This document shows positions 1,509-41,518 of a DNA stretch of 64,000 nt, one piece after another. Source of the stretch: an uncultured delta proteobacterium. Lineage in GTDB: Bacteria; Desulfobacterota; Desulfomonilia; Desulfomonilales; Desulfomonilaceae. The notes under the pieces were generated by a model. That model was not told the origin of the DNA and did no database searches. It saw nothing but the letters and a program-made list of their open reading frames with translations. How positions within the stretch are numbered: the stretch's first letter is position 1; each line of letters opens with the position of its first letter. The DNA lies in NCBI GenBank assembly GCA_963789265.1, contig CAWBKB010000004.1, forward strand, positions 1-64,000, read 5' to 3'. A program made the translations under genes and the position numbers.

Positions 1509-1587
1509 TCAAGTCTGCTCTTGGCTCATATTAAGCCACATTTCGACGCATTGCATGCAGTGATGAGTCAAGAGCAGACTTGACCCC
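1509..1587. repeat. REP-like palindrome (TCAAGTCTGCTCTTGGCTCA ... TGAGTCAAGAGCAGACTTGACCCC); IS110 target
   Basis: 20-bp inverted arms at 1509-1528 and 1564-1583. The left arm is cut where GGGG would be expected. Internal part repeated at 19177-19234. Confidence 0.85.
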
Positions 1588-1590
1588 TTT

Positions 1591-1760
1591 CCTGGAAAAA
1601 AATGAGAGGAAAAATCCAGCGATCCTGGCTAGCCTCCGCTCGTGGTTCTGTCCAGCTCTGGATTGGGACCTGCCTCGGACTGCGATCCGGGGTCTGGAGC
1701 AAGAGTCGGAGTCCAGATTCCGTGACGGTTAGGGGATATGAGTCAAGAGGAGACTTGACC
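1591..1760 (+). repeat. 170-bp non-coding module B ending in TGAGTCAAGAGGAGACTTGACC
   Basis: Near-identical copy at 19308-19479; partial copy at 19098-19164. Confidence 0.9.
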
Positions 1761-1880
1761 ACTTTTCTTTTTTTTATTGATCGTGGACGCTGCGGATCGC
1801 TCTGGGCACCCGGGTCGCGAGACTGTCCAGTGCATCAAAGGCGCTCGGAACGATTTTTCTTCCTTACCAGTATTTTTTTC

Positions 1881-1940
1881 TTGACAACTCAATTTCATAA
1901 ATTTTATAGTTACATGAGTCTAGACTGGGAGGTCGGTCTA
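1881..1940 (+). promoter_or_regulatory. Sigma70 promoter and TetR operator
   Basis: TTGACA-18-TATAGT (1881-1910), followed by the palindrome TAGACTGGGAGGTCGGTCTA (1921-1940). Confidence 0.75.
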
Positions 1941-1971
1941 GAGGATGGTGGCTGCTCTGCGAGAGAGATCT

Positions 1972-2586
1972 ATGAGCAAAGACAAGAACGTGAAAGAAAG
2001 AATACTTGAGAAAAGTATTAAGGCTTTCCTATCCAAGGGCTTTCGAGGAACGACCACGACAGAGATAACCACTGCCGCGGGAGTGGCAAAAGGTACTCTT
2101 TACTGGCATTTCAAGTCCAAGGATGAAATTCTCGACGCAATCTTGGAGAAATTTCTCAAAGAGTTTATTGGGGGCATTGACAACGTGATCGCTAATTGTT
2201 CTGGGAACTTTATCCATAAGTTTAAGACATTTTTTAAGTTTGGAAGTGAATTCAGCCGTGACAATTTTGAATTGATGTTGGTTTATCAGACATTGCTGGG
2301 AGAAATCGTAGGGTCCAATTCGGAAGCGGAAATGAAAATGAGGGCCATTCAGGATCGCTACGATCATTTGGTCCAAACGCTTCTCGATGAAGGAAAAAAG
2401 GAAGGTGTTATCAAGGAGGATGTAGACACTTATATCCAAGCCCGGATTATGACCGCAGCTCTGATTGGAAGTTATCTCCAGTGGTATCTGAACGCAAGTT
2501 CTTATGATTCTGAATATAATAGACGTTATGCCATTGCCTTCAGAAAGACATTGCTGAAAGGGGTAGGAGTAGAAATCGATAGATAG
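1972..2586 (+). CDS. TetR/AcrR family transcriptional regulator
   Basis: N-terminal HTH: GFRGTTTTEITTAAGVAKGTLYWHFKSKDEI. Confidence 0.95.
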   Translation: MSKDKNVKERILEKSIKAFLSKGFRGTTTTEITTAAGVAKGTLYWHFKSKDEILDAILEKFLKEFIGGIDNVIANCSGNFIHKFKTFFKFGSEFSRDNFELMLVYQTLLGEIVGSNSEAEMKMRAIQDRYDHLVQTLLDEGKKEGVIKEDVDTYIQARIMTAALIGSYLQWYLNASSYDSEYNRRYAIAFRKTLLKGVGVEIDR

Positions 2587-2670
2587 TGGTTGAAGCAGAT
2601 CCCTCAAAATTACTGAAAGGAAAATAGGATGATAAAAAACCTGTTGTCGAGCACTTTTTTGCTGCGCTAA

Positions 2671-2690
2671 TAGACCGGGCGGCCGGTCTA
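2671..2690. promoter_or_regulatory. Second copy of the TetR operator, upstream of the catabolic operon
   Basis: TAGACCGGGCGGCCGGTCTA, a 20-bp match (17/20) to 1921-1940. Confidence 0.75.
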
Positions 2691-2850
2691 GACGTACCTC
2701 TGTGATCCGCAGCAGGAGCTTCTGGTAGACAGGGATAGACATTAACCTGCAAACCGGGTGAAAGGAGGATGAAAATAATTCCACATATGATGAAAGGGAA
2801 ATGAAACGCCTTGGAAAACATAACTATCCCCATACCAGGAGGAATGCATC

Positions 2851-4119
2851 GTGGATTACTTAGATAGCAATTTAGGTTTGTCCGACGAAGATCTGGCGGT
2901 AAGAGAGGCTGCCCATAAGTTTGCCAAAGAAATTATGCGGCCCACAGCTAAAAAGTTGGATCAAATGACACCGGAAAAAGTAATAGCTGATGATTCTCCT
3001 CTTTGGAATTTTCTCAAGAAGGCCTACGAACTCGGATACCACAAGGTCATCTTTCCCGAAGAAGTAGGGGGCATGGGACTAACCCCGCTACAACAGGCTA
3101 TTGTCATGGAGGAGATGGGTTGGGGCAGCAATGGGTTGTGCGTCCAATTAGGGGCAGCAGGTGCTCATGCTCTGGGTGGCTTGATGAGCATGAATCCGAC
3201 TCTGTTGGAGGAATTCACCATACCTTTCTGCAACTGCACGGATGGGAGCATCCGAGGGTGCTGGGCGGTCACTGAACCTGATCATGGCTCTGATACCCTG
3301 GGTTTTGGCGACCCTCTTTTCGAGTCCCCTCAAATACGCCCAAACTGCAGAGCCAAGCGTGACGGTAACGAATGGGTTATCAATGGGCAGAAATCCGCTT
3401 GGGTTTCCGGCGCACCGGTAGCCACGCATTGCCTGCTCCAAATGCAGATTGATCCCACCAGAGGTTTCGCGGGAATTGGAGCGGCCATTGTACCGTTGGA
3501 TCTCCCTGGATGTTCCAAAGGCAAACACCACGAGATGCTGGGAATGAGAGAACTCAATCAGTGTGAGCTTTACTTTGATGATGTCAGGATCCCAGCACAT
3601 TATATGTTCCTGGATAATGCCGACTATTATGTTCCTTTTGGAAAACAGATTCTTGCCGGCTTCAATATGACCGTTGCATGTTACGCCACAGGTTTGGCCA
3701 GGGCCGCCTTTGAGGAAGCCTTTTCATACTGTCAGCAGAGGGTCCAGGGAGGACAGCTCCTTAAGGAGCACCGTTCTATCAGACAGAAAATATTTGAAAT
3801 GTTCAGCCGGGTTGAAGCCTGCCGGACCTTGTCCCGGCAAGCCGTTCTATTGAATTCGAGCATCTTTCCTGCCTTTCCCGAATATTCGATCGCAGCCAAG
3901 ACCATGGCCACCGAAATGGCGTTTCAGAATGCCCATGATGCGATCACAATCCTCGGGGCGAATGGGCTGACAAAGGAATATCTTCCAGAGAAACTCTTTC
4001 GCGATGCCCGAGAAAACCTTATTTGCGATGGTACCACGGAGACGCTCCAAAAGGTTGGGGGGTATTTTCTGTTTGAGACCTATCCAAGACCTCGTGGGAG
4101 CATGCAGCGCATGCGTTAG
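2851..4119 (+). CDS. Acyl-CoA dehydrogenase
   Basis: AVTEPDHGSD, INGQKSAWVS, LGANG, KLFRDA..ICDGT motifs. Confidence 0.95.
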   Translation: MDYLDSNLGLSDEDLAVREAAHKFAKEIMRPTAKKLDQMTPEKVIADDSPLWNFLKKAYELGYHKVIFPEEVGGMGLTPLQQAIVMEEMGWGSNGLCVQLGAAGAHALGGLMSMNPTLLEEFTIPFCNCTDGSIRGCWAVTEPDHGSDTLGFGDPLFESPQIRPNCRAKRDGNEWVINGQKSAWVSGAPVATHCLLQMQIDPTRGFAGIGAAIVPLDLPGCSKGKHHEMLGMRELNQCELYFDDVRIPAHYMFLDNADYYVPFGKQILAGFNMTVACYATGLARAAFEEAFSYCQQRVQGGQLLKEHRSIRQKIFEMFSRVEACRTLSRQAVLLNSSIFPAFPEYSIAAKTMATEMAFQNAHDAITILGANGLTKEYLPEKLFRDARENLICDGTTETLQKVGGYFLFETYPRPRGSMQRMR

Positions 4120-4240
4120 AAGTATCTGAGAAGAGGATGTTTTTAATATGCCAAGAAGTTTCTAACTGCCAAAAAGGCATGATTGGGCGGGTCGTTTCAT
4201 GGTTTCGATCGTCATGACCAGCTAAAAAAGGAGAAAATAG

Positions 4241-4567
4241 ATGGCCTACACAAATGTAAAAGAGACTTTTGAAAAAATGACGACCGTATTTGACGCTTCC
4301 AAGGCGCGGGGAGTCAATTCCATTGTCCAATACATCATCGATGGGGCCGGAGGAGGAAACTGGATTATCAAATTAAGGGACGGAAATTGCCGAATAGAGG
4401 AAGCCACACACGATTCTCCCAATGTCACGATTACAATGGACGCCGAGACTTGGTTGGCCCTGGTCAACCAGGAAATAAGCGGCATGGCGGCCTTTATGAG
4501 CGGCAAACTGAAAGCGACCGGGGACGTTATGTTAGCTCAAAAAATCCCTTTGATTTTCCCGCTTTAG
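4241..4567 (+). CDS. SCP2 sterol-binding domain protein
   Basis: AFMSGKLKATGD motif, 108 aa. Confidence 0.92.
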   Translation: MAYTNVKETFEKMTTVFDASKARGVNSIVQYIIDGAGGGNWIIKLRDGNCRIEEATHDSPNVTITMDAETWLALVNQEISGMAAFMSGKLKATGDVMLAQKIPLIFPL

Positions 4568-4671
4568 ATTATTGGGTTCCGGTATCCGAAAATAGCCATT
4601 TATCCCAGGCGCGGCAGTGCTGCGGAGCAAGCTCTTTATCAGGGGTAAACAATAACAGAAGAGGAAGTGAT

Positions 4672-6660
4672 GTGAAGATGAAAATCACGGAATCTATAAA
4701 GATCAAAGGGATGACGCTGAAGAACAGGATCGCCTTCGCACCTTTCCTGGGGATGCCCATAGCGGAGGACGGTTCTGTGAACGCTGAAACAATCAGATGG
4801 TTCGAGGAGCGGGCGCAAGGCGGAGTAGGGTTTATTATGACTGGGACCATCGAGTCGATAGCTCCTGACACCACTAAGAGAGCCGCCATCCAAGCGGAAG
4901 CAGGGGCCTGCATTTATGATGACAAGTACATTCCTGGCTGGGCCAAGTTGATCGACGTGATCCACTCGTATGGCGTGAAGATAGGGGGTCAACTGGCAGC
5001 CCCTGGCCCTATGATGGCCGAAGGCCCTTCGCCTTCGCCGTACCCCGATCAACAATCGGCACGGTTTGGCATATTCGACCTTATAGCGGGAACCATACTG
5101 CCCGTGGACGAAGTTTCCATAGAGCGCCTGGAGACGGTCAAAGGAGCTCTGGCAGCGGGTGCCGGTAGATTGAAGAGAGCCGGTTTTGATTGCGTGGAGC
5201 TGCACTGCGGCCACGGCGGCGCAAACCTTCACGCGGCCTTTCTTTCGCCGTACTATAACCGGAGGACCGACAACTACGGCGGTAACTGGGAGAACCGTGC
5301 ACGTCTTATCGTTGAGACGGTTGGGGAGATAAGAAAAGCCGTCGGCAACGATTATCCGATTCTGGTCAGGTTTTCGGCTGATGAGTTGCTGGGGGAGAGG
5401 GGCATCACGTTGGACGCATCTGCGAAGTATATCGTCCCTATCCTTGAGACGGCCGGTGTGGACGCTATTGACGTGACCCAGGGTTCCGTAATGCATTCCT
5501 TGGAGGGTATTTCCATCCCTCCTTACTACCCTAGGGGCTGCTTCATCTCTAATGCAGAGGCGATAAAGAAGGTCACAAGGCTGCCTGTCATCGGTGTAGG
5601 CCGCATTGTTGACCTTGATATGGCGGAGCAATTTTTGGAACAGGGGAAGGCAGACGTAATCTATCTCGGTAGTCAGCTAGGTGCTGACCCCGAGACACCT
5701 AGAAAGTATTTCGAGGGGAGGTCGGATGAGACCAGGAAGTGCATTGGCTGTAAACCCATATTATGCAGTACCCCTTGTTCCATCAATTATGACTCAGAGG
5801 TTGGTCGCATCCCATTGACTCCTGCGGAAACACCAAAGAAGGTCCTTATCATTGGCGGCGGAGTAGGTGGGATGGAGGCGGCAAGAATTGCCGCACTGAG
5901 GGGCCATAAGGTGACCCTGATGGAGAAGGAACCGGCACTGGGAGGCACAGTGGCCGCACTATCGCATTCGAAACTAATGGGTGAGTTCAAGAACATCGTC
6001 AACTATTTGGGCGTCCAGATGAAGAAGCTGAACGTCGATGTGAGGGTATGCAAAGAAGCTACCGCAGCCGACATAGATGATATCAAACCGGATGTCGTGA
6101 TTATAGCCTGTGGTGCTTCCATGGTGCTTCCAGAAGTTGCCAACGGCAAGCCAGGGGTGATGGATCACATGCATGCCTGCCGTGAGCCGAAATCCGTGGG
6201 GCAGAGAGTCGTCATATGGGGACTCGCCGCTGCGGAGCTTGCCATCTCCCTTGCCGAAGAAGGCAAAGATGTGACCATAGCCGGTAGCGGAGATAAGACG
6301 ACATTGGGTGGGGTGTGGGTAGAAGGTACACGCCAATTATATATATGGAGAAAACTGACGGATATTCCCCTCGCTAGGGAAACGCCTGAAGCAGAACAGG
6401 TACAAAATCCTCGAGTCATTTTCGGAGTAAAGCTTGAGGAGGTCACCCCAGAAGGCGTGAGAACCAGGGATAAGGATGGAGCGGAAAAGGTCCTCCCCTA
6501 CGATACGCTCATCATATCACATTTGAGGGTGCCAAACAAATCTCTCTTTGAGGCGCTCCAGGGGAAAGCGGAAGAAGTGTACAAGATTGGTGACTGCGAC
6601 AAAGTGCGCACAATCAAGAACGCAATCTGGACTGCTAACGAAGTGGCCCGGAAGATTTGA
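4672..6660 (+). CDS. NADH:flavin oxidoreductase (Old Yellow Enzyme / 2,4-dienoyl-CoA reductase-like) with Fe-S and FAD domains
   Basis: LKNRI..AP, NRRTDNYGG..ENRAR, CIGC...C...C, IIGGGVGGMEAA. Start GTG 4672 or ATG 4678. Confidence 0.92.
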   Translation: MKMKITESIKIKGMTLKNRIAFAPFLGMPIAEDGSVNAETIRWFEERAQGGVGFIMTGTIESIAPDTTKRAAIQAEAGACIYDDKYIPGWAKLIDVIHSYGVKIGGQLAAPGPMMAEGPSPSPYPDQQSARFGIFDLIAGTILPVDEVSIERLETVKGALAAGAGRLKRAGFDCVELHCGHGGANLHAAFLSPYYNRRTDNYGGNWENRARLIVETVGEIRKAVGNDYPILVRFSADELLGERGITLDASAKYIVPILETAGVDAIDVTQGSVMHSLEGISIPPYYPRGCFISNAEAIKKVTRLPVIGVGRIVDLDMAEQFLEQGKADVIYLGSQLGADPETPRKYFEGRSDETRKCIGCKPILCSTPCSINYDSEVGRIPLTPAETPKKVLIIGGGVGGMEAARIAALRGHKVTLMEKEPALGGTVAALSHSKLMGEFKNIVNYLGVQMKKLNVDVRVCKEATAADIDDIKPDVVIIACGASMVLPEVANGKPGVMDHMHACREPKSVGQRVVIWGLAAAELAISLAEEGKDVTIAGSGDKTTLGGVWVEGTRQLYIWRKLTDIPLARETPEAEQVQNPRVIFGVKLEEVTPEGVRTRDKDGAEKVLPYDTLIISHLRVPNKSLFEALQGKAEEVYKIGDCDKVRTIKNAIWTANEVARKI

Positions 6661-6690
6661 CAGCACCCCAGACGTTAGAGGAGGCATAGC

Positions 6691-7446
6691 GTGGCAGAAA
6701 CAATGACGGGAAAAACCGCGCTTGTAACTGGCGCGGCATCAGGTATCGGTCGGGCGGTTGCCCTTGCATTTGCGCATGAAGGCTCAAACGTGGTCGTAGG
6801 GGATATCAATGAGAACGGGGGGCAGGAGACTGTTCGGCTCATCGAGCAGGCAGGCGTCAAAGCCGTCTTTATTCAGTGTGATGTGTCAAAGCCGGAAGCG
6901 GTCAAAGGCATGATTGAGAAAGCGGTCGAGGCGTTCGGACAACTTGACTTTGCCTGCAACGACGCGGGGATCCATAACCCACTCCCTGAATCTTTTACCG
7001 AAGTGGACGAGGACATGTGGGACCGGATCATCGAGGTGAACCTGAAGGGCGTGATGCTGTGTATGAAGCACGAGATTCCGCCCATGCTGAAACAGGGAGG
7101 CGGAGTGATCGTCAATATCGCCTCATTGGGCGGCCTTCTTGCGGAGCCAGGGTCTTATGCCTATACCGCATCGAAACACGGTGTTGTAGGCCTCACGAAG
7201 ACGGCGGCTTTTGAGTACGCAAAGATGGGGATTCGAATCAACGCGGTCTGCCCGGCCGTCATTCAGACGCCCATGGTCGAGATGGCTCCCGAAGAAGTCA
7301 AACGGTCGCTGTTGGCTTTGCACCCGATCGGTCGGTTCGGAAAACCGGAGGAGGTTGCAGCGGCGGTTATGTGGCTATGTTCAGATTCATCAGCGTTCGT
7401 AACCGGAACCAGTGTAGTTCTCGACGGCGGCGCCAGTGCGGTCTAG
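6691..7446 (+). CDS. SDR family oxidoreductase
   Basis: TGAASGIG and YTASK motifs. Confidence 0.95.
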   Translation: MAETMTGKTALVTGAASGIGRAVALAFAHEGSNVVVGDINENGGQETVRLIEQAGVKAVFIQCDVSKPEAVKGMIEKAVEAFGQLDFACNDAGIHNPLPESFTEVDEDMWDRIIEVNLKGVMLCMKHEIPPMLKQGGGVIVNIASLGGLLAEPGSYAYTASKHGVVGLTKTAAFEYAKMGIRINAVCPAVIQTPMVEMAPEEVKRSLLALHPIGRFGKPEEVAAAVMWLCSDSSAFVTGTSVVLDGGASAV

Positions 7447-7476
7447 AGATCCGGGCTTACGAAACAGGAGAGATAT

Positions 7477-8844
7477 ATGCATCAGCAACGGCCGTATTGG
7501 AACATGGAGATGGAGACACTTTACGGCACCCCCCAGATGCAGAAGATCCAGCTTGATAGAGTAAAGGATCAACTCATGAGACTGAAGGCCAAGGGCGGAT
7601 ACTACGCGCGGATGCTAAAACGGAACAAGTTGGACCCAGAGAAACTAAGCGGGTTCGATGAATTCAAAGATAAGGCGGAGATATTCAACAAGGCGACCTG
7701 GAAAGAGATCGTGGACGACTGCGAAGGCGACCTGCTGAAAGCTCTCGACGAGCGGATTGCCTGCACTCTCGACGAACTAATTATGATAGCGACGACAACA
7801 GGAACTTCAGGTGTCCCGAGCCCTTATGCATTCACCAACAGGGACCTGTGGGAGATCTGGGGAGAGTATACGGCCCGAGGGTGCTGGCGAGCGGGGATAC
7901 GAGCTCACGATCGGGTGCTGCACTGCTTCGCTCTTTCCATGGTGATTGCCGGACTCCCGTCAGCTATGGCCTATACCAAAATCGGAGCTACTGTGTTACC
8001 CGTCGGCGCGGAGGGAAAAACGGAGAGGATTCTCATGACGCAGGATATGTGGAAGGGAACTGTTTATCTCGGCACCCCATCTCTGCTTGAGTACCTCATC
8101 GAACAAACCCCGAAAGTGATCGGCAAGGGCGTCAAGGAACTTGGATTCAAGTTCCTCGTCTGTGGCGCCGAGCCTGGGGCGGGCATCCCGGAGGTGAAGA
8201 GCAAACTGGAAAGGTCCTATGGCGCGAAGATTTTCGATATCGGGGCAGGTTTGGGTTTCTCCTGCCATTATGATGAATATCAGGGAATGCATTGGCTTGG
8301 CGACGATCTAGCATACTACGAGCTTGTGGAGCCCGATACAAAAAAACCTATCCCCCTTACAAACGGCGCCAGAGGGGAGATGCTCATGACAACTCTCAGA
8401 GCTGAAGGACTTGTATCAATAAGAGAAAGTGCAGGGGACATCCACGAGGTGTTTACAGAGCCGTGTCCGTGCGGACTAAGCGGCTTCCGTTACAAAGTGG
8501 TTGGCCGGGTGGACGATATGCTCAAGGTCAAGGGAATCATGGTCTACCCGAGCCAGATAAAGGGATTGATCAATGACTTCGTACCCCGAGTGAACGGAGA
8601 GATGCGGATTGTACTCGACGAGAGACCCCCTCGGGTAGTGCCGCCCCTGAAGATACGGTTGGAGCATGCAGCCGGTGTGTCAAGAGCGCAACTTGACGCC
8701 CTGGCAGATGAGATCTCCGATACCATGAGCAAACGGCTCAAGATCAAACCTAGGATTATCTGGGCCGAGCCGGGCAGTCTCGAGCGGAGCACGTACAAGG
8801 GTAAGGTATTTGAAAAGACTTACGAAGACACGGGAGTCAAGTAA
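7477..8844 (+). CDS. Phenylacetate--CoA ligase family protein
   Basis: TTTGTSG, GAEPG, CPCG..., GRVDDMLKVKG. Confidence 0.9.
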   Translation: MHQQRPYWNMEMETLYGTPQMQKIQLDRVKDQLMRLKAKGGYYARMLKRNKLDPEKLSGFDEFKDKAEIFNKATWKEIVDDCEGDLLKALDERIACTLDELIMIATTTGTSGVPSPYAFTNRDLWEIWGEYTARGCWRAGIRAHDRVLHCFALSMVIAGLPSAMAYTKIGATVLPVGAEGKTERILMTQDMWKGTVYLGTPSLLEYLIEQTPKVIGKGVKELGFKFLVCGAEPGAGIPEVKSKLERSYGAKIFDIGAGLGFSCHYDEYQGMHWLGDDLAYYELVEPDTKKPIPLTNGARGEMLMTTLRAEGLVSIRESAGDIHEVFTEPCPCGLSGFRYKVVGRVDDMLKVKGIMVYPSQIKGLINDFVPRVNGEMRIVLDERPPRVVPPLKIRLEHAAGVSRAQLDALADEISDTMSKRLKIKPRIIWAEPGSLERSTYKGKVFEKTYEDTGVK

Positions 8845-8845
8845 C

Positions 8846-10102
8846 ATGCGTGATGTCTACATAGTGGGCGTTGGAATGACGCGGTTTTTCAAGTGGCTCG
8901 ACCGGGGAATTAAGGATTTGACCAGGGAGTCAGTGACCGAAGCCCTTAATGACGCAGGTCTTCTGAAGGACCAGATAGAGGCAGCGTGGTTTGCCAATTC
9001 GACGTGGGGTTTTTTCGAAGGCCAGGACCAGATGCGCGGCCAGGTGGCTTTTGCTTCCCTTGGAATGTACGAAATCCCAATAAGCAATTCGGAAGGAGCG
9101 TGCGGTGGCGGATCGCAGGCACTTCACGGAGCATGGCTGGCGGTGGCGTCAGGAGCTTACGAGTGCGCCATGGCGGTCGGAGCCGAAAAACTTTACAACG
9201 AGGACAAAACAAGGTCCTTCAGGGCGATAGCCTCGGGGACAGACGTGGAAAACAGCAAAGTGATGACCGATTCCTGGATAAAGAGGTTGCACGACTTGGG
9301 CATTGCGACGTCAGACGCGGATGTGGTCGACCAGGATAATATGACTCGCAGCCCCATGATGGACATTTATGCCTACATGATCCGGTGGCACATGAAAGAA
9401 TATGGCACCACACAACACCAGTTGGCGCTGATCACCTCCAAGAATCATTGGCACGGCTCGATGAACCCCAAGGCCCAGTATCAGAAAGAGATGACTGTGG
9501 AGGCAGTTCTGGCAGGAAAGCCCATTGTTTACCCTTTGACGGCGCCCATGTGTGCACCGCTGGGTGATGGAAGCGCTGCGGCCATACTATGCTCTTCCGA
9601 TTTTCTGAAGAGAATCAAGTCTCCCAGGCCGGTCAAGATACTCGCTTCCGTCTTTGGATCTAATAGCCCGAGGTGTTTTGACGAGCCGGAGAAAGGTATA
9701 GAAGTGAGGCTGTCTGCAAAAGCATACAATATGGCCGGGATAGGGCCTGAAGATGTCAACCTTCTCGAGATCCATGACGCGGCCTCATTCGGAGAATTGA
9801 AGATGACGGAACAGCTTGGCTTCTGCAACAGGGGAGAAGGAGGACCTTTTGCCGAGTCAGGAGCCACCACTCTTGGCGGGAAAATCCCTGTAAACGTTTC
9901 AGGAGGCCTTATCTCCCGTGGACACCCTCTTGCGGCTACAGGCATCGCTCAGATCTATGAACTTACGACCCAGCTTCGGGGAGAGGCAGGGAAGAGACAG
10001 GTGGAAGGAGCGAGAATCGGTATGTCCGAGAATGGCGGGGGCCAGATCTATTTTGAAGAGGCCTCCATGGGCATACACATCCTGGAAAAGGTACCCAAGT
10101 GA
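8846..10102 (+). CDS. Thiolase family protein (SCP-x type)
   Basis: EGACGGG, EIHDA, NVSGGL..RGHP. Confidence 0.93.
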   Translation: MRDVYIVGVGMTRFFKWLDRGIKDLTRESVTEALNDAGLLKDQIEAAWFANSTWGFFEGQDQMRGQVAFASLGMYEIPISNSEGACGGGSQALHGAWLAVASGAYECAMAVGAEKLYNEDKTRSFRAIASGTDVENSKVMTDSWIKRLHDLGIATSDADVVDQDNMTRSPMMDIYAYMIRWHMKEYGTTQHQLALITSKNHWHGSMNPKAQYQKEMTVEAVLAGKPIVYPLTAPMCAPLGDGSAAAILCSSDFLKRIKSPRPVKILASVFGSNSPRCFDEPEKGIEVRLSAKAYNMAGIGPEDVNLLEIHDAASFGELKMTEQLGFCNRGEGGPFAESGATTLGGKIPVNVSGGLISRGHPLAATGIAQIYELTTQLRGEAGKRQVEGARIGMSENGGGQIYFEEASMGIHILEKVPK

Positions 10103-10180
10103 ATTTGTTCTGTCCATGACCGCCCGAGGTTTGCTGCCTTTATCGCCCTCCGAGGCGATCGGAGACACAAATGAGGAGAC

Positions 10181-10690: not shown

Positions 10691-10810
10691 GGCATGAAAA
10701 CTCGCTCCCCAAATTCCTCCTTTGGAAAGGCAGAGTTACCCTCACGCTTCCTGCCATTCTAAGTGGCAATTGCTGTTGAGATTACAGGCTTGAAAGGGAA
10801 GGACAGTGCA

Positions 10811-11599: not shown

Positions 11600-12000
11600 C
11601 CGCAAATGGGTGGCACTAATCCCCGGTGGCAAAAGACGGCGTCAGAGAAGTGATGCGAATTCCGAGAGCTGCGGAGAGAGGAAGACATGTCCGATGTTTC
11701 TTCTAGCAGGTCGGGCAGCCGTAGTGATGGGCGCCGAAGCCGATTTGGGGAGGGAGTTCGCGATTACTCGGGTAAAGATAGGATGATGTGCCCATCAAAT
11801 GACAGTATGGGGCGATGGCTGGAAAAATGAAGAAGCCGCAGCGTCGATACAGAAATTTTGGTTCTAACGAAAGGAGGCGAGGACCAGAGGGAACGGGCTG
11901 AGCTCAAACGACCGATTGGAGGATGAAGATGCCAAGGCATGCAGAACTAAGCCTTTTATTGGGGAATGGACGGCAATATCAAACCTTAAGGAGGAACCAC

Positions 12001-13050
12001 ATGAGAAGCCTGCGCGAAACAAGTTGCATCGTTGTGATCTTCATGTCGGTACTTGCGTTTTTGGCAGTGACAGTCGGGACATGTCTTGCTGAAGGCCCCG
12101 CTATGAAGATCGCACCGAAGGGGAAAAAGAAGATCACAATAGGGGTCATCGACCCCAACGCCGGGATTGAAGTCGCCGCACAATTCAATAAAAAACATAG
12201 AGCCGCGGCGGCAAAGAGAGGCTGGGATATTCGATTCGTCGACTTGAAGGACAACATACCTCAAGCATCGGCCGACATGGAAAACATGATATCGGCCGGG
12301 TACGACGGCATCATACTTCATTGGATGCCGCTGAGAGCCGTTGAAAAGCAAATAAAGTTGGCCTTCGACAAAGGGATTCCGGTAGTTACCCTTATTTCGC
12401 AGGGCACGAGGACTCCCGGCGTTCTGGCGGAGGTGGGATTCATGGAGTCCACTCATGGGGCGATGCTTGCCGAGTATCTGGGAAACAAGCTGAAAGCAGG
12501 AGACAAAGTGGTCACCGTCACCATACCCATGTTGGAAAAGCATGAAAAACAATTGGCCGGTTTTAAGGGCGTAGCCGATACATACAAGCTGAAGATCATC
12601 CAGAATCTCCAATATCAGTTTTCAGGAGATCCGTTTCAGTGGGCACATGACCAGATCACGAACATGCTAGTGGCCGACTCTAAGAAAGAAATCAAGGGCA
12701 TTTATGCGAGCACGGACATCCTCGGCACTCCGGCCGCGCGGGCGTGCCATGAGCGAGGTCGTGACGACGTCATCGTCGTCATGAGCGACGACTCCGCTCA
12801 TGTCTACACGGAGATCCGGGAGCTGCCCGCTCTCCAGGCGGTAGCCGCCATGTCTATCCATGAAAAATCAATGAATGACTTAGTATTCAGCCTTTTTGAC
12901 AAGGTGTTTAAGGGGGAAGGCGTTGTAAGCCAAAAATGGTACCCGGTCCTTGGAAGCCTCATGACGAGGGACAAGCTTCCTCCTCCAGGATATGGTTACG
13001 ACGTTTGCGGAGGTTACAAGGATCGCAAACCTGATTTCACTGTGAAATAG
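12001..13050 (+). CDS. Sugar-type ABC transporter substrate-binding protein (RbsB-like)
   Basis: Signal peptide, ENMISAGYDGII, KGIPVVT. Confidence 0.88.
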   Translation: MRSLRETSCIVVIFMSVLAFLAVTVGTCLAEGPAMKIAPKGKKKITIGVIDPNAGIEVAAQFNKKHRAAAAKRGWDIRFVDLKDNIPQASADMENMISAGYDGIILHWMPLRAVEKQIKLAFDKGIPVVTLISQGTRTPGVLAEVGFMESTHGAMLAEYLGNKLKAGDKVVTVTIPMLEKHEKQLAGFKGVADTYKLKIIQNLQYQFSGDPFQWAHDQITNMLVADSKKEIKGIYASTDILGTPAARACHERGRDDVIVVMSDDSAHVYTEIRELPALQAVAAMSIHEKSMNDLVFSLFDKVFKGEGVVSQKWYPVLGSLMTRDKLPPPGYGYDVCGGYKDRKPDFTVK

Positions 13051-13158
13051 CAATAATTGCTGGGTGCGGCCTTTTCCCACAGGATTTGGATGGGAAGGGG
13101 GAGACGCAAGAAATGAGTTTGTACCGTTGTCTCAGTGCGACATCAGGAGCAACCGCTG

Positions 13159-14679
13159 ATGGAAACCGGTGTGAAGGAGGGCGTCATTCTGGAGGCCAAA
13201 GGAATTGTGAAACAGTTCTCTGGCCAGCGTGCACTCGATAAAGTGGACCTGGATGTCCGGACGGGTGAAGTGCATGCCCTGATCGGCGAAAACGGTGCAG
13301 GCAAATCCACGCTTGTCAAGATCATTGCCGGGGCCATCCGGGCGGATAGCGGTGAGATACTGCTGGACGGGAAGCGCGTGACCATTGACAGCCCCAGGGA
13401 CAGCCGAGAGTTGGGTCTTGCCTTCATTCACCAGGACCTTAATGTGGTACCGCATCTCTCTGTTGCTGAAAACATATACCTGGGAAGGTATCCAAGAAGT
13501 TCATTCGGATTGGTACGAGTGCCCAAGATGGCTGACATGGCACGCACTATCCCCGGAGCTGTCCGCATAAACGCGGATCTCCGGAGGCCGGTAGGGGAAC
13601 TGCCTCTCATCGAACAGTGGAAAACAGTCATTAACCGGGCTCTTGCCATGAATTCTCGGGTCATTTTCATGGATGAGCCTACCACCTCTCTGACCCATAG
13701 CGAGGTCGAGGAACTCTTCAACTCTATCTCTCATCTAAAAGAAACGGGAAAGGCGATCGTCTACGTTTCCCATCGGATGGAAGAGATCTTCAGAATCGCC
13801 GATAGGGTGACGGTCATCAAGGACGCAATGAAAGTCGGAACCTCGCCTGTAAGCGTGCTGAACTCGAGGCAACTCTACAGCATGATGCTGGGAAGAGAAT
13901 TCGAGGATGTCTTCCCCGCAAAGGCCCCACCGGGAGAGAAGGTTCGCCTCGAAGTAAAGAATCTTTCCCGGGGGCATGCCGTTACGGACATCAGTTTTCA
14001 ACTTCGAGAGAGCGAGATTCTCGGTCTTGCCGGACTTGTCGGCTCCGGGAGAACAGAACTAGCCCGTCTGCTTTTCGGCGCGGACCGCAAGGACCGAGGA
14101 GATATCTTTATAAACGGTGAAAAAGCGGCCATCGGATGTCCCGTGGACTCTATCAGGAAGGGTATCGGCCTAGTGCCGGAGGACCGACACACACAGGGTT
14201 TGGTCCTTCCCATGGACGTGAAGCAGAATATTACTCTCGCGAGCCTTAAACAACTATGGAAATCAGTCCGACTTCCCCTTTTGAGCCGCCGAAAAGAGAG
14301 CACGCTTGCCGCAAAGTTCATCATCACGACAGCCGTCAAAACGTATGGAGTCGGCCAGCCGGTATCCTCGCTCAGCGGCGGAAATCAACAGAAGGTAGTG
14401 CTTGCCAAATGGCTCTGCGCCAAGTCGGAGGTTCTGATACTTGACGAGCCGACGAAAGGGATCGACGTCGGGGCGAAATTCGCACTCTATCGGCTCATTA
14501 CCGATCTTGCCAGGGCGGGGAAGTCAATCATAGTCATATCCTCCGATCTCATCGAAGTCTTGGGACTTTGTCATCGGATTCTCGTGCTGGACGGGGGTAG
14601 AATCAAAGCAGACCTGAAGAGGGAGGAGACTGACCTGACGTCCCTCCTTGCCTTGTGCCTGGAAACATCGATCAACTGA
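13159..14679 (+). CDS. Sugar ABC transporter ATP-binding protein (RbsA-like)
   Basis: GENGAGKST, two ABC domains, LSGGNQQKV. Confidence 0.95.
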   Translation: METGVKEGVILEAKGIVKQFSGQRALDKVDLDVRTGEVHALIGENGAGKSTLVKIIAGAIRADSGEILLDGKRVTIDSPRDSRELGLAFIHQDLNVVPHLSVAENIYLGRYPRSSFGLVRVPKMADMARTIPGAVRINADLRRPVGELPLIEQWKTVINRALAMNSRVIFMDEPTTSLTHSEVEELFNSISHLKETGKAIVYVSHRMEEIFRIADRVTVIKDAMKVGTSPVSVLNSRQLYSMMLGREFEDVFPAKAPPGEKVRLEVKNLSRGHAVTDISFQLRESEILGLAGLVGSGRTELARLLFGADRKDRGDIFINGEKAAIGCPVDSIRKGIGLVPEDRHTQGLVLPMDVKQNITLASLKQLWKSVRLPLLSRRKESTLAAKFIITTAVKTYGVGQPVSSLSGGNQQKVVLAKWLCAKSEVLILDEPTKGIDVGAKFALYRLITDLARAGKSIIVISSDLIEVLGLCHRILVLDGGRIKADLKREETDLTSLLALCLETSIN

Positions 14680-14698
14680 GCTGTGAGGAGATAGTTCC

Positions 14699-15661
14699 AT
14701 GAAAAGTAGGGAATTAACCAGGGTTCGGTTTCTCGTATTTGCGGGGAAGTATGGAACGCTAATTTGTCTCTTCGCCATGATCGTTGTTTTCAGCATCCTC
14801 CTGCCGGCCTTCCGGTCGTCCAACAACCTCGTCAATCTGTTGGGGCAGACGGCCATCCTCTCGATAATGGCAGCCGGGATGACCTGTACGCTCAAGATGG
14901 GAGACTTTGATCTTTCCATCGGGGCCATTGCTGCCCTCACCGGGATAGTCAGCGCAAAGATTCTGTTGGCTGGCGGAGGCATCCCGCTAGCCATCGCCTT
15001 TGGCCTTGCAACGGGTCTCATAATTGGCCTAATTAATGGTGTCTTTGTGGCCTACATTGGGCTTAACGCATTTGTTTGCACCCTGGCCACAATGAGCATA
15101 ATCTTCGGGTTGTGCCTGACGGTCACCAAGGGCATCATGTTATTCGGCCTGCCTCATAGCTTCGAGTTCTTCGGCAGAGGAGACGTACTCGGGATCCCGT
15201 TCCGCTTCGTCTTCATGATCTGCTTGCTGTTTGTCCTATGGTTTTTCCACGAGTACACGCCTACTGGCAGAAGGATGGAGGCCATCGGAGGTAATCCGGT
15301 GTCCGCGCAACTTTCCGGAATCAAGGTGGAATGGAACAGGCTCTTCGGCTACCTGTTATCAGGCGCTTGTGCAGCGGCCGCCGGGATTTTGCTGGCCTCA
15401 TCGACGATGAGTGCGACCTCCACGCAGGGTGGCGCCTATCTGTTGGATGCTTTTGGCGCCTCCTTTATCGGCGCCTCGACGGTTCGTGTCGGCCAGTTTC
15501 ATATCCCGGGTACCTTTGTCGGGGTTCTCATCGTCGTTATAGCGGTCAACGGCCTTATCATTCTTATGGTGCCGGGCTATCTGACGGACATGATCAAGGG
15601 AATTATTCTTCTCCTGGCAATCATGTTGTCTGGAGCGGTCGGGAAGTTTGTTAAGGGCTAA
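14699..15661 (+). CDS. Sugar ABC transporter permease (RbsC-like)
   Basis: DLSIG, GGN..SA.LSGI, hydrophobic segments. Confidence 0.93.
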   Translation: MKSRELTRVRFLVFAGKYGTLICLFAMIVVFSILLPAFRSSNNLVNLLGQTAILSIMAAGMTCTLKMGDFDLSIGAIAALTGIVSAKILLAGGGIPLAIAFGLATGLIIGLINGVFVAYIGLNAFVCTLATMSIIFGLCLTVTKGIMLFGLPHSFEFFGRGDVLGIPFRFVFMICLLFVLWFFHEYTPTGRRMEAIGGNPVSAQLSGIKVEWNRLFGYLLSGACAAAAGILLASSTMSATSTQGGAYLLDAFGASFIGASTVRVGQFHIPGTFVGVLIVVIAVNGLIILMVPGYLTDMIKGIILLLAIMLSGAVGKFVKG

Positions 15662-15883
15662 CAAAGAGAAAAAACTGGGCATCCTATTAACAAAGTGCTT
15701 GAAAGAATTCCTGGCCTTGCCGGCCTGCTGGATGTGGGGCAAAGACTTACTGGAAGCGATAAGTATCTGAAGATCCAGGGTGGAAGAGAATCTATCAAGT
15801 GCGTGGCTTACAGAGGCTTTCCGGCCGAGGTGGAGGATCTTTTCCACAAAAAAGGACTCGCTTCCTCAAAAGGCGGCTTGACA

Positions 15884-15987
15884 TGAGTCAAGAATAGACT
15901 TGAACCCTTTTGACAAAGTAGCGGCACCCCGCAAACCCGGACCAAAAGGAACCCCCAGAGAGAATTGAGTGTGGTGTACCCGGAATT
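15884..15987 (+). repeat. Two adjacent REP/RAYT-type end motifs (TGAGTCAAGAATAGACTTGAACCC; AATTGAGTGTGGTGTACCCGGAATT)
   Basis: They match the 1564/1739/19141 site and the 35120 site respectively. Between them is a short peptide tail, AAPRKPGPKGTPREN*. Confidence 0.7.
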
Positions 15988-15989
15988 CT

Positions 15990-16264
15990 CTTCGGCTCAG
16001 CTAGATGTGAAGGATATTGCCGCCTTTATCGCTGAAGACAGCCCCTCGGCGGCAAAACGATTTGTCAAAAGCTTATTCCAGGCTGTGGAAAGATCAGCAG
16101 AGTTTCCGGAGTCTGGGCGCATTGTTCCGGACTTCAGCGATCCCGTCATCCGATAATTAATTCGCAGACCGTGTAGGATCGTCTACAGAGTCGATAGCCT
16201 AGAAAGCACAGTTCAGATACTAAGAGTCTGGCACACGGCTAGGGGCACACCCGATGTCCCGTAG
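15990..16264 (+). pseudogene. RelE/ParE toxin pseudogene
   Basis: AQLDVKDIAAFIAEDSPSAAKRFV...FPESGRIVP..IR*LIRRPCRIVYRV...ILRVWHTAR. The 5' end is missing and there is an internal TAA at 16154. Confidence 0.85.
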
Positions 16265-16902
16265 TGCGGGCGCGGGGATGGCGGCTTAGGCCGGGAGGCG
16301 TGGATCAAAACTTCAATCGTTTAATCTTATAGCGTCTTACACATTATCCGCATTGTGTACCGGACTGCTTGCGGTGGATTCATCCCTTCGCGTTCCAATT
16401 GTGTCCACCATTCAACCGGCCAATTCCGCAAATCGTGGTCATCATAAGTTTGCAATTCTAATCTTAAAAGTTGAAGCCAATTCTCCATAACTTAATCTCG
16501 CTCGGCCCCGCTCTGTAATCCACATGCTAATGGGCATGTAACGGGTCCTTAGCCCGGGACCTAGGATCATCGTTTGTGAAGTGGCGGTCCCGGTCCTGTT
16601 CGGCCCTCAAGTAACGGCCTGCAAAGACTCAAATGACCCATTCCTTCAATGTGATACCGACTTATCTTACAACAGCCGTGCCAAATCTAAACAGCATGTA
16701 GTTCTAGCACGTTAAAGGCTAGGAGATGTTGATGAAAATCCAGGGAAGTGCAAAAATGGCCCGAGGCTGACTCTGGGCGGGCGCTAATCGCCCATCGGCG
16801 TTCTTGAATTGACCCCTCAAGCAAACCTGGGCCGCGCACAAACAAAACAGCCGCGGGACACGAAATGATCCTGCGGCTGTCTCATTATTCGCCTGTGGGG
16901 AT

Positions 16903-17829
16903 CTATTTCCCTGCAAGCTCGATAAGTATTTTCGCCAATTCCTCAGGGTGGGAAAAATTGGCAGTATGGCTGCTGTTTATTGTCACCACCTCTGTTTTAT
17001 TCTGTGGGGTAAAGGCATCCGCCTTATCAATAAAGAGTTTCTGCAGTGCAGGTCGTATGGCGTAGTCCTCGCTGCAACTTATGTATGCCCTCTTGACACT
17101 TCCCCATTTGGCCTGTGTGGTCTTTACCGGTGTTGCTATCTCCTTAATGGGAAGGTCAGGAGTGAGGAAATAGCAAGACATGTCAAAGACAGCATCATCG
17201 ACATCAGCACCGAATGCCTTCTTGGCTGTTCCGCGGTAGGCAGGATCATCCGATCTAGGGTCAATCCTTACGGCACCGACCACTTTAGGATCCGCTTTCA
17301 CAAGGGAGTTGACCGGAGAGTCCTGGTTTTCAGGGCCGGTTGTGTATTTGCTGGGAGGCACATTCGACTCCGGCATGAAAGCCGACACGTACACAAGCTT
17401 CTTGATCTTCTCCGGCGCCATCTCCCCAACCAAGGTGATTGGCACTCCTCCCATACTGTGACCCACAAGGACCACCGGACCCGATCCGCCCTGCATCAAT
17501 GCATCGATCGTCCCCATGATCTTGTCGGCCATTGCTTGCAGAGTCACATCTCGCACAGGTGACGGCTCGGTGGCGAAGGCCTTAGGGTCGAAGGGCCGCT
17601 TCAAAAACGATTTGGGGAGTTTTGCATTCAAGCCGTACCCCGGCAGGTCTATCGCTACCGCCTTGTGGCCGGCTTTACCTAGAAAAGGTATCACTTTTTC
17701 CCAGCACCATCCTCCACTCCAGGCCCCGTGAACCAGCACGTATGTGGCTGACTCGGCGTAATGGCCGGTGCAGAAGACAAGTGGGAGACAGAGGAACAGG
17801 CCTGTGAACAACTTATGTAACCTACTCAT
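16903..17829 (-). CDS. Secreted alpha/beta hydrolase (methylesterase-like)
   Basis: Signal peptide, LVHGAWSGGWCW, GHSMGG nucleophile elbow, catalytic D and H. Confidence 0.93.
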   Translation of the reverse strand: MSRLHKLFTGLFLCLPLVFCTGHYAESATYVLVHGAWSGGWCWEKVIPFLGKAGHKAVAIDLPGYGLNAKLPKSFLKRPFDPKAFATEPSPVRDVTLQAMADKIMGTIDALMQGGSGPVVLVGHSMGGVPITLVGEMAPEKIKKLVYVSAFMPESNVPPSKYTTGPENQDSPVNSLVKADPKVVGAVRIDPRSDDPAYRGTAKKAFGADVDDAVFDMSCYFLTPDLPIKEIATPVKTTQAKWGSVKRAYISCSEDYAIRPALQKLFIDKADAFTPQNKTEVVTINSSHTANFSHPEELAKILIELAGK

Positions 17830-18311
17830 AGAGATCCTCCTTTTCCCCGGAAATGTGCCGCAATGTTGTCGATTATGGTGTGCCTCGGACGCAGCCCCCT
17901 CGCGGAAGGGTCATTCTGAAATGACGAGAGACGCCCTGATGGTCCCTCCATCAGGCAGGAGAATGGCAAAATCGCCGTCATGTTGATGAAAGAGTCAGCC
18001 TTTTTTGCGTTGGTTAACAGTAAGTGACCGCATGCCCCTTGTCAAGAAAAAACGGCGGAATTCTGGGGACATAACAATTATTTTCATATTGTCCAGCATC
18101 GTGTTTGCTTGATGGATATTTGTGAGAGAGAACGGTTTGCAGCAACGGTCGAGAAACTGACGGGCCGGAACGTAAGCAAGGAAAGGGGCAGGCGGCCGCG
18201 GGAACACCGTTCGTGAAAGATGGCATTATGTTCCCAGAAATCTTGCGCTGAAGATAAAGCGAAGTCAGGATCAGTATTGACCTATGACGTTTCTCGTTAT
18301 ACCATACATCT

Positions 18312-18600
18312 ATGATAGTCAGTTTCAAGGACAAAGACACCGAAAAGGTCTTCAAACGGGAGTATTCCAGAAAAACACCCCAGGCAATTCAAGCCGCTGC
18401 AAACAAAAAGCTTATAATGCTACCACGCGGCTGCGTATCTTGAAGACTTGAACAGTCCTCCGGGAAACCGGCTGGAACAACTCAACGGCGACCGAATAGG
18501 ACAGCACAGCATACGTATCAACGATCAGTACCGGATCTGTTTCGTCTGGGCTGAAGGTAAAGCCCACGGGGTCGAGATCGTTGATTACCACAAAGGATAG
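18312..18600 (+). pseudogene. higB: HigB (RelE-family) toxin, +1 frameshift near 18423
   Basis: MIVSFKDKDTEKVF...KLIML / HAAAYLEDL..PPGNRLE.L.GDR.GQHSIRINDQYRICF.W......VEIVDYH. TTGACC-15/17-TATACC-like promoter with a palindrome directly upstream. Confidence 0.88.
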
Positions 18601-18605
18601 AGACC

Positions 18606-18914
18606 ATGACAAGGAAAGTATTGCCTCCGGTTCATCCGGGAGAAATTCTCCTGGAAGAGTTTATAAAGCCTCTCGGAATAAGCCAGAATAGGCTTGCTCG
18701 CGACCTGAAGGTTCCTCCGCGACGAATAAACGAGATCGTTCACGGCAGACGGGGTATTACTATAGATACCGCACTGAGGCTGGCAAGACATTTCGGAACC
18801 TCAGTCGAGTTTTGGATCAACCTGCAGACGCACTATGAGCTGGAGGTAGCCGAGGACAACAAACTGACGGATAGAGTAAAGAAAGAAGTAACGCCTCGAA
18901 CGACAGCGGCATAG
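18606..18914 (+). CDS. higA: HigA family antitoxin
   Basis: PVHPGEILLEEF, RINEI..G.R.IT.DTALRLAR.FGTS.EFW.NLQ. Confidence 0.95.
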   Translation: MTRKVLPPVHPGEILLEEFIKPLGISQNRLARDLKVPPRRINEIVHGRRGITIDTALRLARHFGTSVEFWINLQTHYELEVAEDNKLTDRVKKEVTPRTTAA

Positions 18915-19011
18915 GCAAGATAATCTGTGTGCCAGTTTTTGTAGGATGAGGTGAGAGAAACGAACCTCATCATACGAGGTATTCTCTGTCAAAACTTGTG
19001 CGACCCAAACC

Positions 19012-19479
19012 GTGACCGGTGCGGTTCCCACGCCTCGGGCGTACTCACCAGCACCCTACACGAGGTTGTCATTCCGGCCAGCTCCGGACAGGCCTTCGGA
19101 GCAAGAGCCGGAATCCAGATTCTGTGACGGTTAGGGGATATGAGTCAAGAGGAGATCTGACCCCTTTTTATTGTCCATTAAGCCACATTTCGACGCATTG
19201 CCTGCAGTGATGACTCAAGAGCAGACGTGACCCCTTTTCTGACCCCTTTTCTTTTTCAAAACATGACCGAGCACCCGTAAGAAGTGAGTGTTGCGGTTCT
19301 GAATTCCCCTGGGAAAAAATGAGAGGAAAAATCCAGCGATCCTGGCTAGCCTCCGCTCGTAGTTCTGACCAGCTCTGGATTCGGGCCTGCCTCGGACTGC
19401 GATCCGGGGTCTGGAGCAAGAGCCGGAATCCAGATTCCGTGAGAGTTAGGGAGAGATGAGTCAAGAGGAGACTTGACCC
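19012..19479 (+). repeat. Cluster of shuffled non-coding modules (B'-A-spacer-B), each ending in the TGAGTCAAGA..TGACCCC site
   Basis: Sites at 19141, 19211 and 19457; tandem TGACCCCTTTTC duplication at 19228-19251. Confidence 0.85.
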
Positions 19480-41505: not shown

Positions 41506-41518
41506 GTATAATATCGCC

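Follow-up and report, generated by a model that had tools for sequence, protein, structure and literature searches.

The window analysed here, a 64,000-nt stretch of contig CAWBKB010000004.1 from an uncultured delta proteobacterium (assembly GCA_963789265.1), contains seven copies of a 25-nt repeat, ATGAGTCAAGAGCAGACTTGACCCC, six in the same orientation and one inverted; all coordinates without a locus label refer to it. This repeat is very probably the terminal inverted repeat (TIR) of a TIRtron, an element of ~1.03 kb in which two inverted copies of ATGAGTCAAGAGCAGACTTGACCCC surround the gene of a TIRYT transposase (subclass 2.1.2 of Quentin, 2018). The identity of the repeat, its link to a transposase in other genomes, its sharp outer boundary and the recurrent duplication at that boundary are direct observations. 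The copies in the window are orphan TIRs, because no TIRYT gene or remnant was found there, and comprise one inverted dimer (1509-1587) and five singles that end lineage-specific non-coding modules. An initial annotation had taken these sites for the junctions of a possible cassette-like capture system. TIR activity, together with the insertion of an IS1111-group insertion sequence (IS), would account for the apparent junctions without cargo capture.

The repeat was located in the window with two types of scan. A degenerate pattern with at most 2 mismatches gave six matches, starting at 1564, 1739, 15884, 19141, 19211 and 19457, all on the + strand, and 0.00 matches in shuffled sequences. The 25-nt consensus of the copies is ATGAGTCAAGAGCAGACTTGACCCC, and a search with at most 3 mismatches recovered the same six sites. 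With up to 7 mismatches, for which shuffles yielded a mean of 0.1 matches, the sole addition was an inverted copy running from 1529 to 1509, and no further copies were found in the interval from 19.5 to 64 kb. Both scans, compared with shuffles, therefore confirm the six same-orientation copies and one inverted copy of the initial annotation. The copy at 1563-1587 (+) is identical to the consensus. Across a 33-nt spacer it faces the copy at 1509-1529 (-), and the two form an inverted dimer with the consensus copy as right arm and the copy at 1509-1529 as left arm. The left arm has 5 mismatches, four of which replace the CCCC tail by TAAT: it is cut after ...ACTTGA, and the left end of an IS (TAAT...) occupies the place of the tail. 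The other five copies, all on the + strand, deviate from the consensus at 2-3 positions. They are located at 1738-1762 (3´ end of module B; 2 mismatches, tail CCAC), 15883-15907 (a solo copy directly downstream of an ABC permease gene and upstream of a ParE-like open reading frame (ORF); 3 mismatches), 19140-19164 (terminating the partial module B´; 3 mismatches), 19210-19234 (terminating the second module A; 2 mismatches) and 19456-19480 (terminating the second module B; 2 mismatches). Most window copies have thus drifted from the consensus. Each repeat carries a small GTCAAG-N6-CTTGAC hairpin of 6 pairs, with the CCCC/GGGG end facing outward; this stem is weakened by disrupted pairs in the copies at 19140 and 19210. 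Folded as single-stranded DNA, the inverted dimer (1500-1595) reaches -22.1 kcal/mol with a z score of -6.1.

The link to a transposase comes from other genomes. Public genomes were scanned with the pattern ATGAGTCAAGANNAGACTTGA, which matched at least 120 stretches with at least 129 occurrences in at least 119 loci (designated by L-numbers), nearly all in metagenome-assembled genomes (MAGs) of Desulfobacterota; by our own arithmetic (19 specified bases, 596 Gb), ~4 chance matches are expected. The counts below apply to the matches listed, among which 80 loci have full flanks and a single MAG contributes at most 6 loci. Two overlapping locus pairs (L073/L074 and L077/L078) enter the counts over 129 occurrences twice, and the hits in L062 and L112, which have no CCCC tail, resemble chance matches. 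The listed hosts belong to Desulfomonilaceae, Syntrophales, Smithella, Desulfobacterales and Desulfatiglandales; a small number of bins carry other labels (Nitrospirota, Nitrospinota, Methylomirabilota and further taxa), for which contamination is possible.

Inverted pairs ~986 bp apart were observed in L048, L077 and L068, each around one ORF of 320-326 aa. The enclosed ORFs match Y1_Tnp (PF01797; E 1e-10 to 1e-14) and Bac_DnaA_C (PF08299; E 4e-9 to 4e-11), both above their cut-offs, and their translations contain the HYH and RYIHRNP motifs. A Tn3-family 38-bp end, suggested by the GGGG start of the site, was dropped for the reason that the flanked gene encodes a Y1 transposase. In all three loci, 27-28 bp separate the left repeat copy from the start codon downstream of it, and the right copy extends over the stop codon, so that many of the proteins end in ...MSQEQT. 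Repeats with at most 4 mismatches were found on both sides of eight of the nine full-length Y1 genes in the listed loci, and the ninth (L022, 35% identity) is associated with a different, related repeat that likewise ends in TTTGACCCC. Overall, 40 of the 129 listed occurrences adjoin a Y1 gene on their inner side, 22 of them 25-90 bp upstream of the start and 18 over the stop codon. These inverted pairs around a Y1_Tnp and Bac_DnaA_C gene, together with the 40 adjoining occurrences, support the proposal of the initial annotation that a Y1/HUH, RAYT-like transposase uses the sites as its ends (RAYT stands for REP-associated tyrosine transposase and REP for repetitive extragenic palindrome). Action in trans, which belongs to the same proposal, is supported by association in other genomes and not in this one; as the window has no Y1 gene, any activity there would have to be of this kind. 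The TTGACT of the repeat faces inward at 27-28 bp from the transposase start codon (L048 and L077, 5001-5048) and is a candidate -35 box that could drive a near-leaderless transcript; in the window, the stretch from 19148 to 19119 (-) in one copy was flagged as promoter-like.

Conservation over 120 listed sites defines the ends of the repeat. The free loop positions are G in 95% and C in 82% of the sites, and the four tail positions are C in 82-93%; three T-rich positions (55-71%) follow, beyond which the sequence is unconserved. The inner side is also unconserved, save for position -2 (A in 69%). Within 117 listed loci, 155 repeat-like matches were found, including 7 tight dimers and several arrays. 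These matches form 34 neighbouring pairs at most 1.2 kb apart, 23 of which are inverted with their inner sides facing: 7 are dimers with gaps of up to 100 nt, the gap is 101-400 nt in 6 and 401-1200 nt in 10, and 8 of these 10 have a gap of ~985 nt with the gene enclosed. Nine of the remaining pairs have the same orientation and two have their outer ends facing; same-orientation arrays occur in L003, L011, L092 and L116. Solo copies are mostly intergenic. Their neighbours, identified from 81 ORFs in 40 listed loci, include alaS, selA, dapB, dtd, coaX and rluD-like genes, and some solo copies lie beside PIN, Fic, nucleotidyltransferase or helix-turn-helix (HTH) genes.

A TGACCCC end is shared by other repeat families in these loci, such as ...GATCAAGGTTTGACCCC and TTGTCAAGAWTAAAGATTTGACCC. 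They were observed in L009 (1422-1453, 5031-5062 and 7804-7835), L020, L046 and L022 (~4154 and ~5001), sometimes directly upstream of the 25-mer in the same orientation, and in L046 one of them is tandemly duplicated over 22 nt. In L073 (3950-9630), a contig of an uncultured Desulfosarcina, 7-nt-periodic CAGNNNN blocks, accompanied by a GCGAGACTCGCGGGAAA motif, are spaced ~1 kb apart. The intervals hold genes for PIN proteins and nucleotidyltransferases as well as two copies of the 25-mer module, and the array is cassette-like in appearance.

The Y1 protein belongs to a large family: of the 8000 candidates that were scored, at least 6039 proteins have E <= 1e-20, and several carry the source name 'REP element-mobilizing transposase RayT'. 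It scores 69.5-74.8 bits on the NCBIfam model for REP-associated tyrosine transposases (NF047646; cut-off 80) and ~21 bits on the IS200 model NF033573 (cut-off 55). Many TIRYT homologues lie on contigs of ~1.0-1.4 kb, roughly the length of the element, which would fit assembly breaks at a multi-copy repeat. In the sections covered of Di Nocera (2013; BMC Genomics 14:522, PMC3733652), TIRtrons are described as RAYT-like genes, the TIRYTs, between long terminal inverted repeats instead of REPs, with a shared motif GGGGWSAS and with repeat families present as singles, dimers or groups. Most TIRYTs fall in subclass 2.1 according to the corresponding parts of Quentin (2018; PMC6006769), with a subgroup 2.1.2 that has a Bac_DnaA_C-like C-terminus. 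The element found here agrees with these accounts, as far as they were covered, in its RAYT-like Y1 gene with a DnaA-type HTH tail between long inverted repeats, in an outer end that starts GGGG(T)(C)A, in the dispersal of copies as singles, dimers and groups, and in the placement of one repeat at a fixed short distance upstream of the start and the other over the 3´ end of the gene. The inverted repeats around a RAYT-like gene were seen in other genomes only and not in the window.

Three other types of element or site share some of these features. REPs are short palindromic intergenic repeats that flank a single Y1 gene in inverted orientation and also occur as singles and inverted doublets, the REPINs, presumably moved in trans. 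The present repeat is likewise palindromic, intergenic, inverted around one Y1 gene and present as non-autonomous singles and doublets. It differs from REPs in its consensus, which has no GTAG or CGTC tag, in a protein that stays below the NF047646 cut-off and carries an extra DnaA-type domain, and in being shared across species, whereas REPs are species-specific. The association of REPs and REPINs with RAYTs is reportedly the work of Nunvar (2010), Bertels and Rainey (2011) and Ton-Hoang (2012). Elements of the IS200/IS605 family (IS608, ISDra2) share the HUH Y1 chemistry, and their hairpin ends and single-strand 'peel and paste' provide the model for the mechanism proposed below. Unlike the present element, whose ends are inverted copies of one sequence, they have left and right subterminal hairpins that differ, no inverted terminal repeats and a TnpA of ~130-150 aa, in line with the score of ~21 bits on NF033573. 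Integron attC sites are also recurrent imperfect palindromes at module boundaries in one orientation; here, no IntI, attI or Pc is present, the modules are non-coding or multi-gene, and the site is a transposon end.

By analogy with IS200/IS605 and RAYT enzymes, the TIRYT would recognise the repeat, probably as a hairpin in single-stranded DNA, and would cut and rejoin DNA a few bases outside the CCCC. It may also act in trans on orphan copies, which would therefore spread as singles, dimers and clusters.

Several observations weigh against the assignment of the window copies to a TIRtron. No TIRYT gene or remnant was found in the window by tblastn (best E 0.19), and a hidden Markov model of 100 TIRYT family members searched against the six-frame translation of the window found none (best E 2.1). 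The source genome lies outside the listed loci, so that a cognate enzyme in the source organism is putative. No gene lies beside 73 of the 129 listed occurrences, whose inner flank spans at least 300 bp; in a further 16 of the 129, the inner flank is too short to judge. Six same-orientation copies are atypical of the family, in which same-orientation pairs make up 9 of 34. The hairpin of a single repeat folds weakly (-4.1 kcal/mol, z -0.8). The outer end GGGGTCAA matches GGGGWSAS at 7 of 8 positions, the last being A and not S, which also sets it apart from the TIRtron motif. Homologues of modules A and B and of the 19-kb spacer are absent from the 119 listed loci. The taxonomic spread of the repeat depends on MAG bins, which may be contaminated. 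In the literature naming TIRYTs, as far as covered, cleavage or transposition data for any TIRYT were not found.

The left edge of the window is occupied by an IS110-family element of the IS1111 group (1-1508, -), recognised by DEDD_Tnp_IS110 and Transposase_20 domains (PF01548 and PF02371). It comprises a left end of 75 bp (1434-1508), a transposase gene (417-1433) and a right end that continues beyond the window edge and measures at least 416 bp (1-416). The transposase scores 184 bits on NF033542 (cut-off 140). Its longest ORF spans 417-1478 (-), and the start at 1433, behind AGGAGG, is more likely. A subterminal inverted repeat was observed in which AAAAGGCCCTCTG (1-13) pairs with CAGAGGTGCCTTTT (1487-1500) over 13 matches with one indel. 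In the direction of the IS, with slashes marking junctions, the boundary in the window reads ATGAGCCAAGAGCAGACTTGA / TAATCATAAAAAGG..., where the repeat halts at TGA and the IS starts. The same arrangement is seen at both junctions of the element in L049 (546-1897; transposase 24% identical), ...AGACTTGA / TAATATG...CATAGG / TGACCCC. In L028 (~4770-4978), a ~200-bp derivative without a transposase gene, whose body is homologous to window positions 1-185, has junctions identical in kind, ...CCTGA / TAATGAC...TTAATAGG / TGACCCC. The TGA / TAAT junction is present in four listed loci (L028, L049, L094 and L097). From the L028 and L049 junctions it follows that the window begins ~6 bp inside the right end of the IS; judged from these sequences, the repeat's other half, TGACCCC, is expected just beyond the left edge. 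The inverted copy at 1509 is thus a TIR split at its TGA by an IS1111-group IS110 element, and this insertion accounts for part of the junction at 1.5 kb. Since related elements occupy the same position in other genomes, the TIR is a preferred IS target, and the repeat appears to be the landing site of an IS family.

The close contact between IS and repeat also admits the converse reading, that the repeat is the end or footprint of an IS110-family element and not of a Y1 element. The IS abuts the repeat copy at 1508/1509, and its right end holds a repeat-like stretch, ...GAGTCTTTTCCCTTGAC... in the window and ...AAGTCTTTTTATTCTTGACT... in L049. We consider this reading extremely improbable. 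In tblastn searches with the window transposase, homologues were found in 2 listed loci, with a full-length gene in L049 alone, as against a TIRYT gene beside 40 listed occurrences. Moreover, the break that the IS makes in the repeat is at a fixed point, and in L028 and L049 the tail continues beyond the IS, which is the behaviour of a target and not of an end. The adjacency of TIRYT genes, the L028 and L049 junctions and the two-sided flanking of genes already contradict an IS origin.

The repeat is therefore best kept as a TIR that serves as an IS target, for which parallels exist. Elements of the IS1111 group are marked by a longer right end, subterminal inverted repeats of 7-17 bp and a bridge RNA in the right end, according to the passages covered of Durrant (2024); the element at 1-1508 shows the first two of these marks. 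In those passages, IS621 in REPs resembles the present case in its DEDD transposase, long right end and subterminal inverted repeats, and in its insertion at one fixed position and orientation in the repeat of another element. Close to the right end of the element, a conserved stretch shows complementarity to the repeat arms. A two-sequence consensus fold of the IS right end gave 9 compensated pairs, with little power at two sequences. An Rfam search of positions 1-2000 (E <= 10) returned no bridge RNA match, and the right-end bridge RNA stays putative. IS4321 and IS5075 in the terminal repeats of Tn21, and the cases treated by Tobes and Pareja in 2006, are reportedly, to go by their titles, repeat-targeting IS as well. 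The present case differs from IS621, IS4321 and IS5075 in that the target is a TIRYT repeat cut at its TGA and in the putative status of the bridge RNA. A fixed-site insertion of an IS1111-group element in a TIRYT repeat was not met in the literature passages and supplements covered. Modules A and B were also considered as a left-end bridge RNA of the IS; this candidate was dropped, since L028 and L049 place the IS end at 1508 and the long non-coding end is the opposite one.

The modules next to the repeats were defined by repeat finding and blastn. Module A (1530-1594, +) consists of the 33-nt dimer spacer and a repeat (65 nt), with a second copy at 19177-19241 that is 94% identical. Module B (1591-1771, +) consists of ~150 nt of non-coding sequence and a repeat, and its second copy at 19308-19490 (~183 nt) is 93% identical. 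A partial module, B´, relates 1696-1766 to 19098-19168 (+; 71 nt, 92% identical). At 19 kb these parts form a single-orientation array (19098-19490, +) in the order B´, A, boundary duplication, a unique 56-nt spacer (19252-19307) and B. The modules of the initial annotation are thus real and reordered, and A and B are slightly longer (65 nt and ~183 nt) than the 58 bp and 170 bp it gave. Its claim that similarity breaks right after TGACCCC did not hold: the similarity continues for another 4-10 nt, ending at 1594/19241 (A), 1766/19168 (B´) and 1771/19490 (B). The copies of A differ by 6-7%, as do those of B, and neither duplication is therefore recent. Module B carries no coding signal for a transposase and was unmatched in Rfam, which returned nothing relevant at gathering thresholds for the whole window or at E <= 10 for positions 1-2000.

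The array includes a tandem duplication of TGACCCCTTTTC (19228-19239 and 19240-19251, +) that spans the outer boundary of the repeat; it had been reported in the initial annotation and was found again here. A corresponding scar recurs across the family. Exact tandem duplications of 9-16 nt that begin within CTTGACCCC and extend a few bases into the flank were found at 14 of 120 listed sites; the corresponding figures are 1 of 120 for the inner side and 6 of 2000 for random windows. Imperfect or triple duplications were seen in L006, L017, L024, L028 and L034, and the whole repeat is duplicated in L116. The outer boundary therefore marks a place of repeated DNA breakage and re-joining or re-copying. 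We infer that the scar arises incidentally, either when the Y1 enzyme cleaves and re-joins DNA or upon insertion beside an existing end; replication slippage at the hairpin could be an alternative source. A family-wide boundary scar was not met in the literature passages and supplements covered.

The scar and the arrays bear on a further explanation, self-targeted one-ended insertion, in which repeat-ended units would join just outside an existing TGACCCC end and produce arrays and duplications with no organised gene capture. It is unlikely. The arrays A-B and B´-A-duplication-spacer-B in the window agree with it, as do whole- or partial-repeat tandem copies in L116, L003 and L034 and a second TGACCCC-ending repeat family directly upstream of the 25-mer in L009, L020 and L046. 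The left edge of module B at 19308, however, adjoins no repeat, and no direct evidence of insertion events was found. Same orientation is found in only 9 of the 34 listed neighbouring pairs, and slippage at the hairpin could yield the duplications. An extended form of the idea, which we put forward with low confidence, makes the outer TGACCCC boundary a self-targeted joining hot spot, where the TIRYT stacks repeat-ended units or re-joins its own cut end, with IS1111-group elements specialised on the same 25-mer. If true, segments of DNA would be stacked and shuffled without an integrase, which would account for the boundary duplications and same-orientation arrays, and mobile elements would form a three-layer nest that reads one short sequence.

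The T-rich positions beyond the tail and the intergenic location raise the question of a host function, as proposed for classical REPs: the repeat could terminate transcription, stabilise RNA as a hairpin or bind a protein, and the transposase link would be historical only. The T-rich tail is present in 55-71% of listed sites, and the copies at 1742-1759 and 19460-19477 were flagged as terminator-like. Against this stand a stem of 6 pairs with a folding energy no better than that of shuffled sequence, the absence of an Rfam match, and near-identical 25-mers over many families and possibly several phyla, which favour horizontal spread over host selection. Terminator-like matches in the region are at chance level (22 compared with 20.2 expected), and the terminator reading was rejected on this ground. 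A host-used element is accordingly improbable, and the repeat is better understood as a TIR.

The catabolic cluster that figures in the capture model spans 14 kb (1945-15661) and encodes a TetR regulator, an acyl-CoA dehydrogenase, an FMN oxidoreductase, two short-chain dehydrogenases/reductases, a ligase-like protein, a thiolase and an ABC uptake system. Its position between two repeat copies, as in the initial annotation, was verified (1739 and 15884). A ParE-like ORF (15965-16156, +; 63 aa) starts 58 bp downstream of the copy at 15883-15907; it covers profile positions 6-50 of 89 and is probably truncated. Under the capture model, a trans-acting HUH enzyme would accrete cargo, such as the 14-kb cluster and toxin-antitoxin genes, at the junction sites in an integron-like array. 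The single orientation of six copies, the variable module order, the bounding copies at 1739 and 15884, the ParE-like ORF and an HTH gene between copies, and the same-orientation arrays in L003, L011, L092 and L116 are compatible with such capture; so are the PIN, Fic and nucleotidyltransferase genes beside some solo copies in listed loci and the boundary duplication as a mark of DNA joining.

The remaining evidence nevertheless makes cassette-like capture very unlikely. No integrase domain was detected in the 74 window ORFs by Pfam scans, and neither an integrase nor a Y1 gene was found in the 64 kb. Neither module A nor module B is coding, most listed solo copies lie beside housekeeping genes (alaS, selA, dapB, dtd, coaX), and inverted pairs are the family norm (23 of 34 listed pairs). 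Neither an empty nor an occupied cluster site was found: the window as a whole shares the L097 segment alone with the listed loci. The GC content shows no island signature. Evidence that the 14-kb cluster moves was absent from everything testable here. With at least 12 genes and its own TetR regulator, the cluster is an ordinary regulated operon set. The integron-like accretion of cargo and toxin-antitoxin fragments proposed initially is therefore not sustained, given the missing integrase, the non-coding modules, the housekeeping neighbours of most solo copies and the prevalence of inverted pairs.

Farther downstream, the window encodes a full-length Dsr2 (SIR2-type) defence protein (30895-34854, +; PADLOC E 1.8e-241) and a two-gene AbiL-like / PDC-M38 ATPase system (37967-39831, +), and this part resembles a defence island. 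Two IS1595-family transposase genes and a protein kinase ORF lie at 40495-41599 (-), 44287-45261 (+) and 41488-42285 (-); one of the transposase genes is broken into two ORFs and overlaps the kinase ORF at its end, and the other is intact. A type I restriction R subunit (60683-63472) appears fragmented, with a SWI2/SNF2 piece at 61238-61783, C-terminal parts at 62060-63472 and no N-terminal part, and a HepT/MNT toxin-antitoxin pair (60683-61314, -) lies directly upstream of the pieces. A leucine carboxyl methyltransferase-family gene (26738-27698, +) consists of two overlapping ORFs, suggesting a frameshift.

The TIRtron/TIRYT class of repeats is already known, though obscure, and the 25-nt Desulfobacterota repeat adds to it. 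The repeat is absent from the covered text and supplements of Di Nocera (2013; PMC3733652), Figure 9 excepted. It was likewise not found in those of Quentin (2018; PMC6006769), in which the supplements name no Desulfo- or Syntropho- taxon. One 25-mer shared across many Desulfobacterota lineages was not met in the literature passages and supplements covered. In the same literature TIRYT elements are rarely named and come without biochemistry. The family offers a clean and widely shared substrate, consisting of one 25-mer with a sharp outer boundary and a reproducible boundary scar, which suits tests of DNA recognition and cleavage by a RAYT-like enzyme with a DnaA-type domain. A further natural example is gained of an element of the IS1111 group, presumably guided by RNA, that inserts at a fixed base in the end of another transposon. 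For the window itself, the annotation changes from an apparent capture system to orphan transposon ends and an IS, which cautions against reading the catabolic cluster as mobile cargo.

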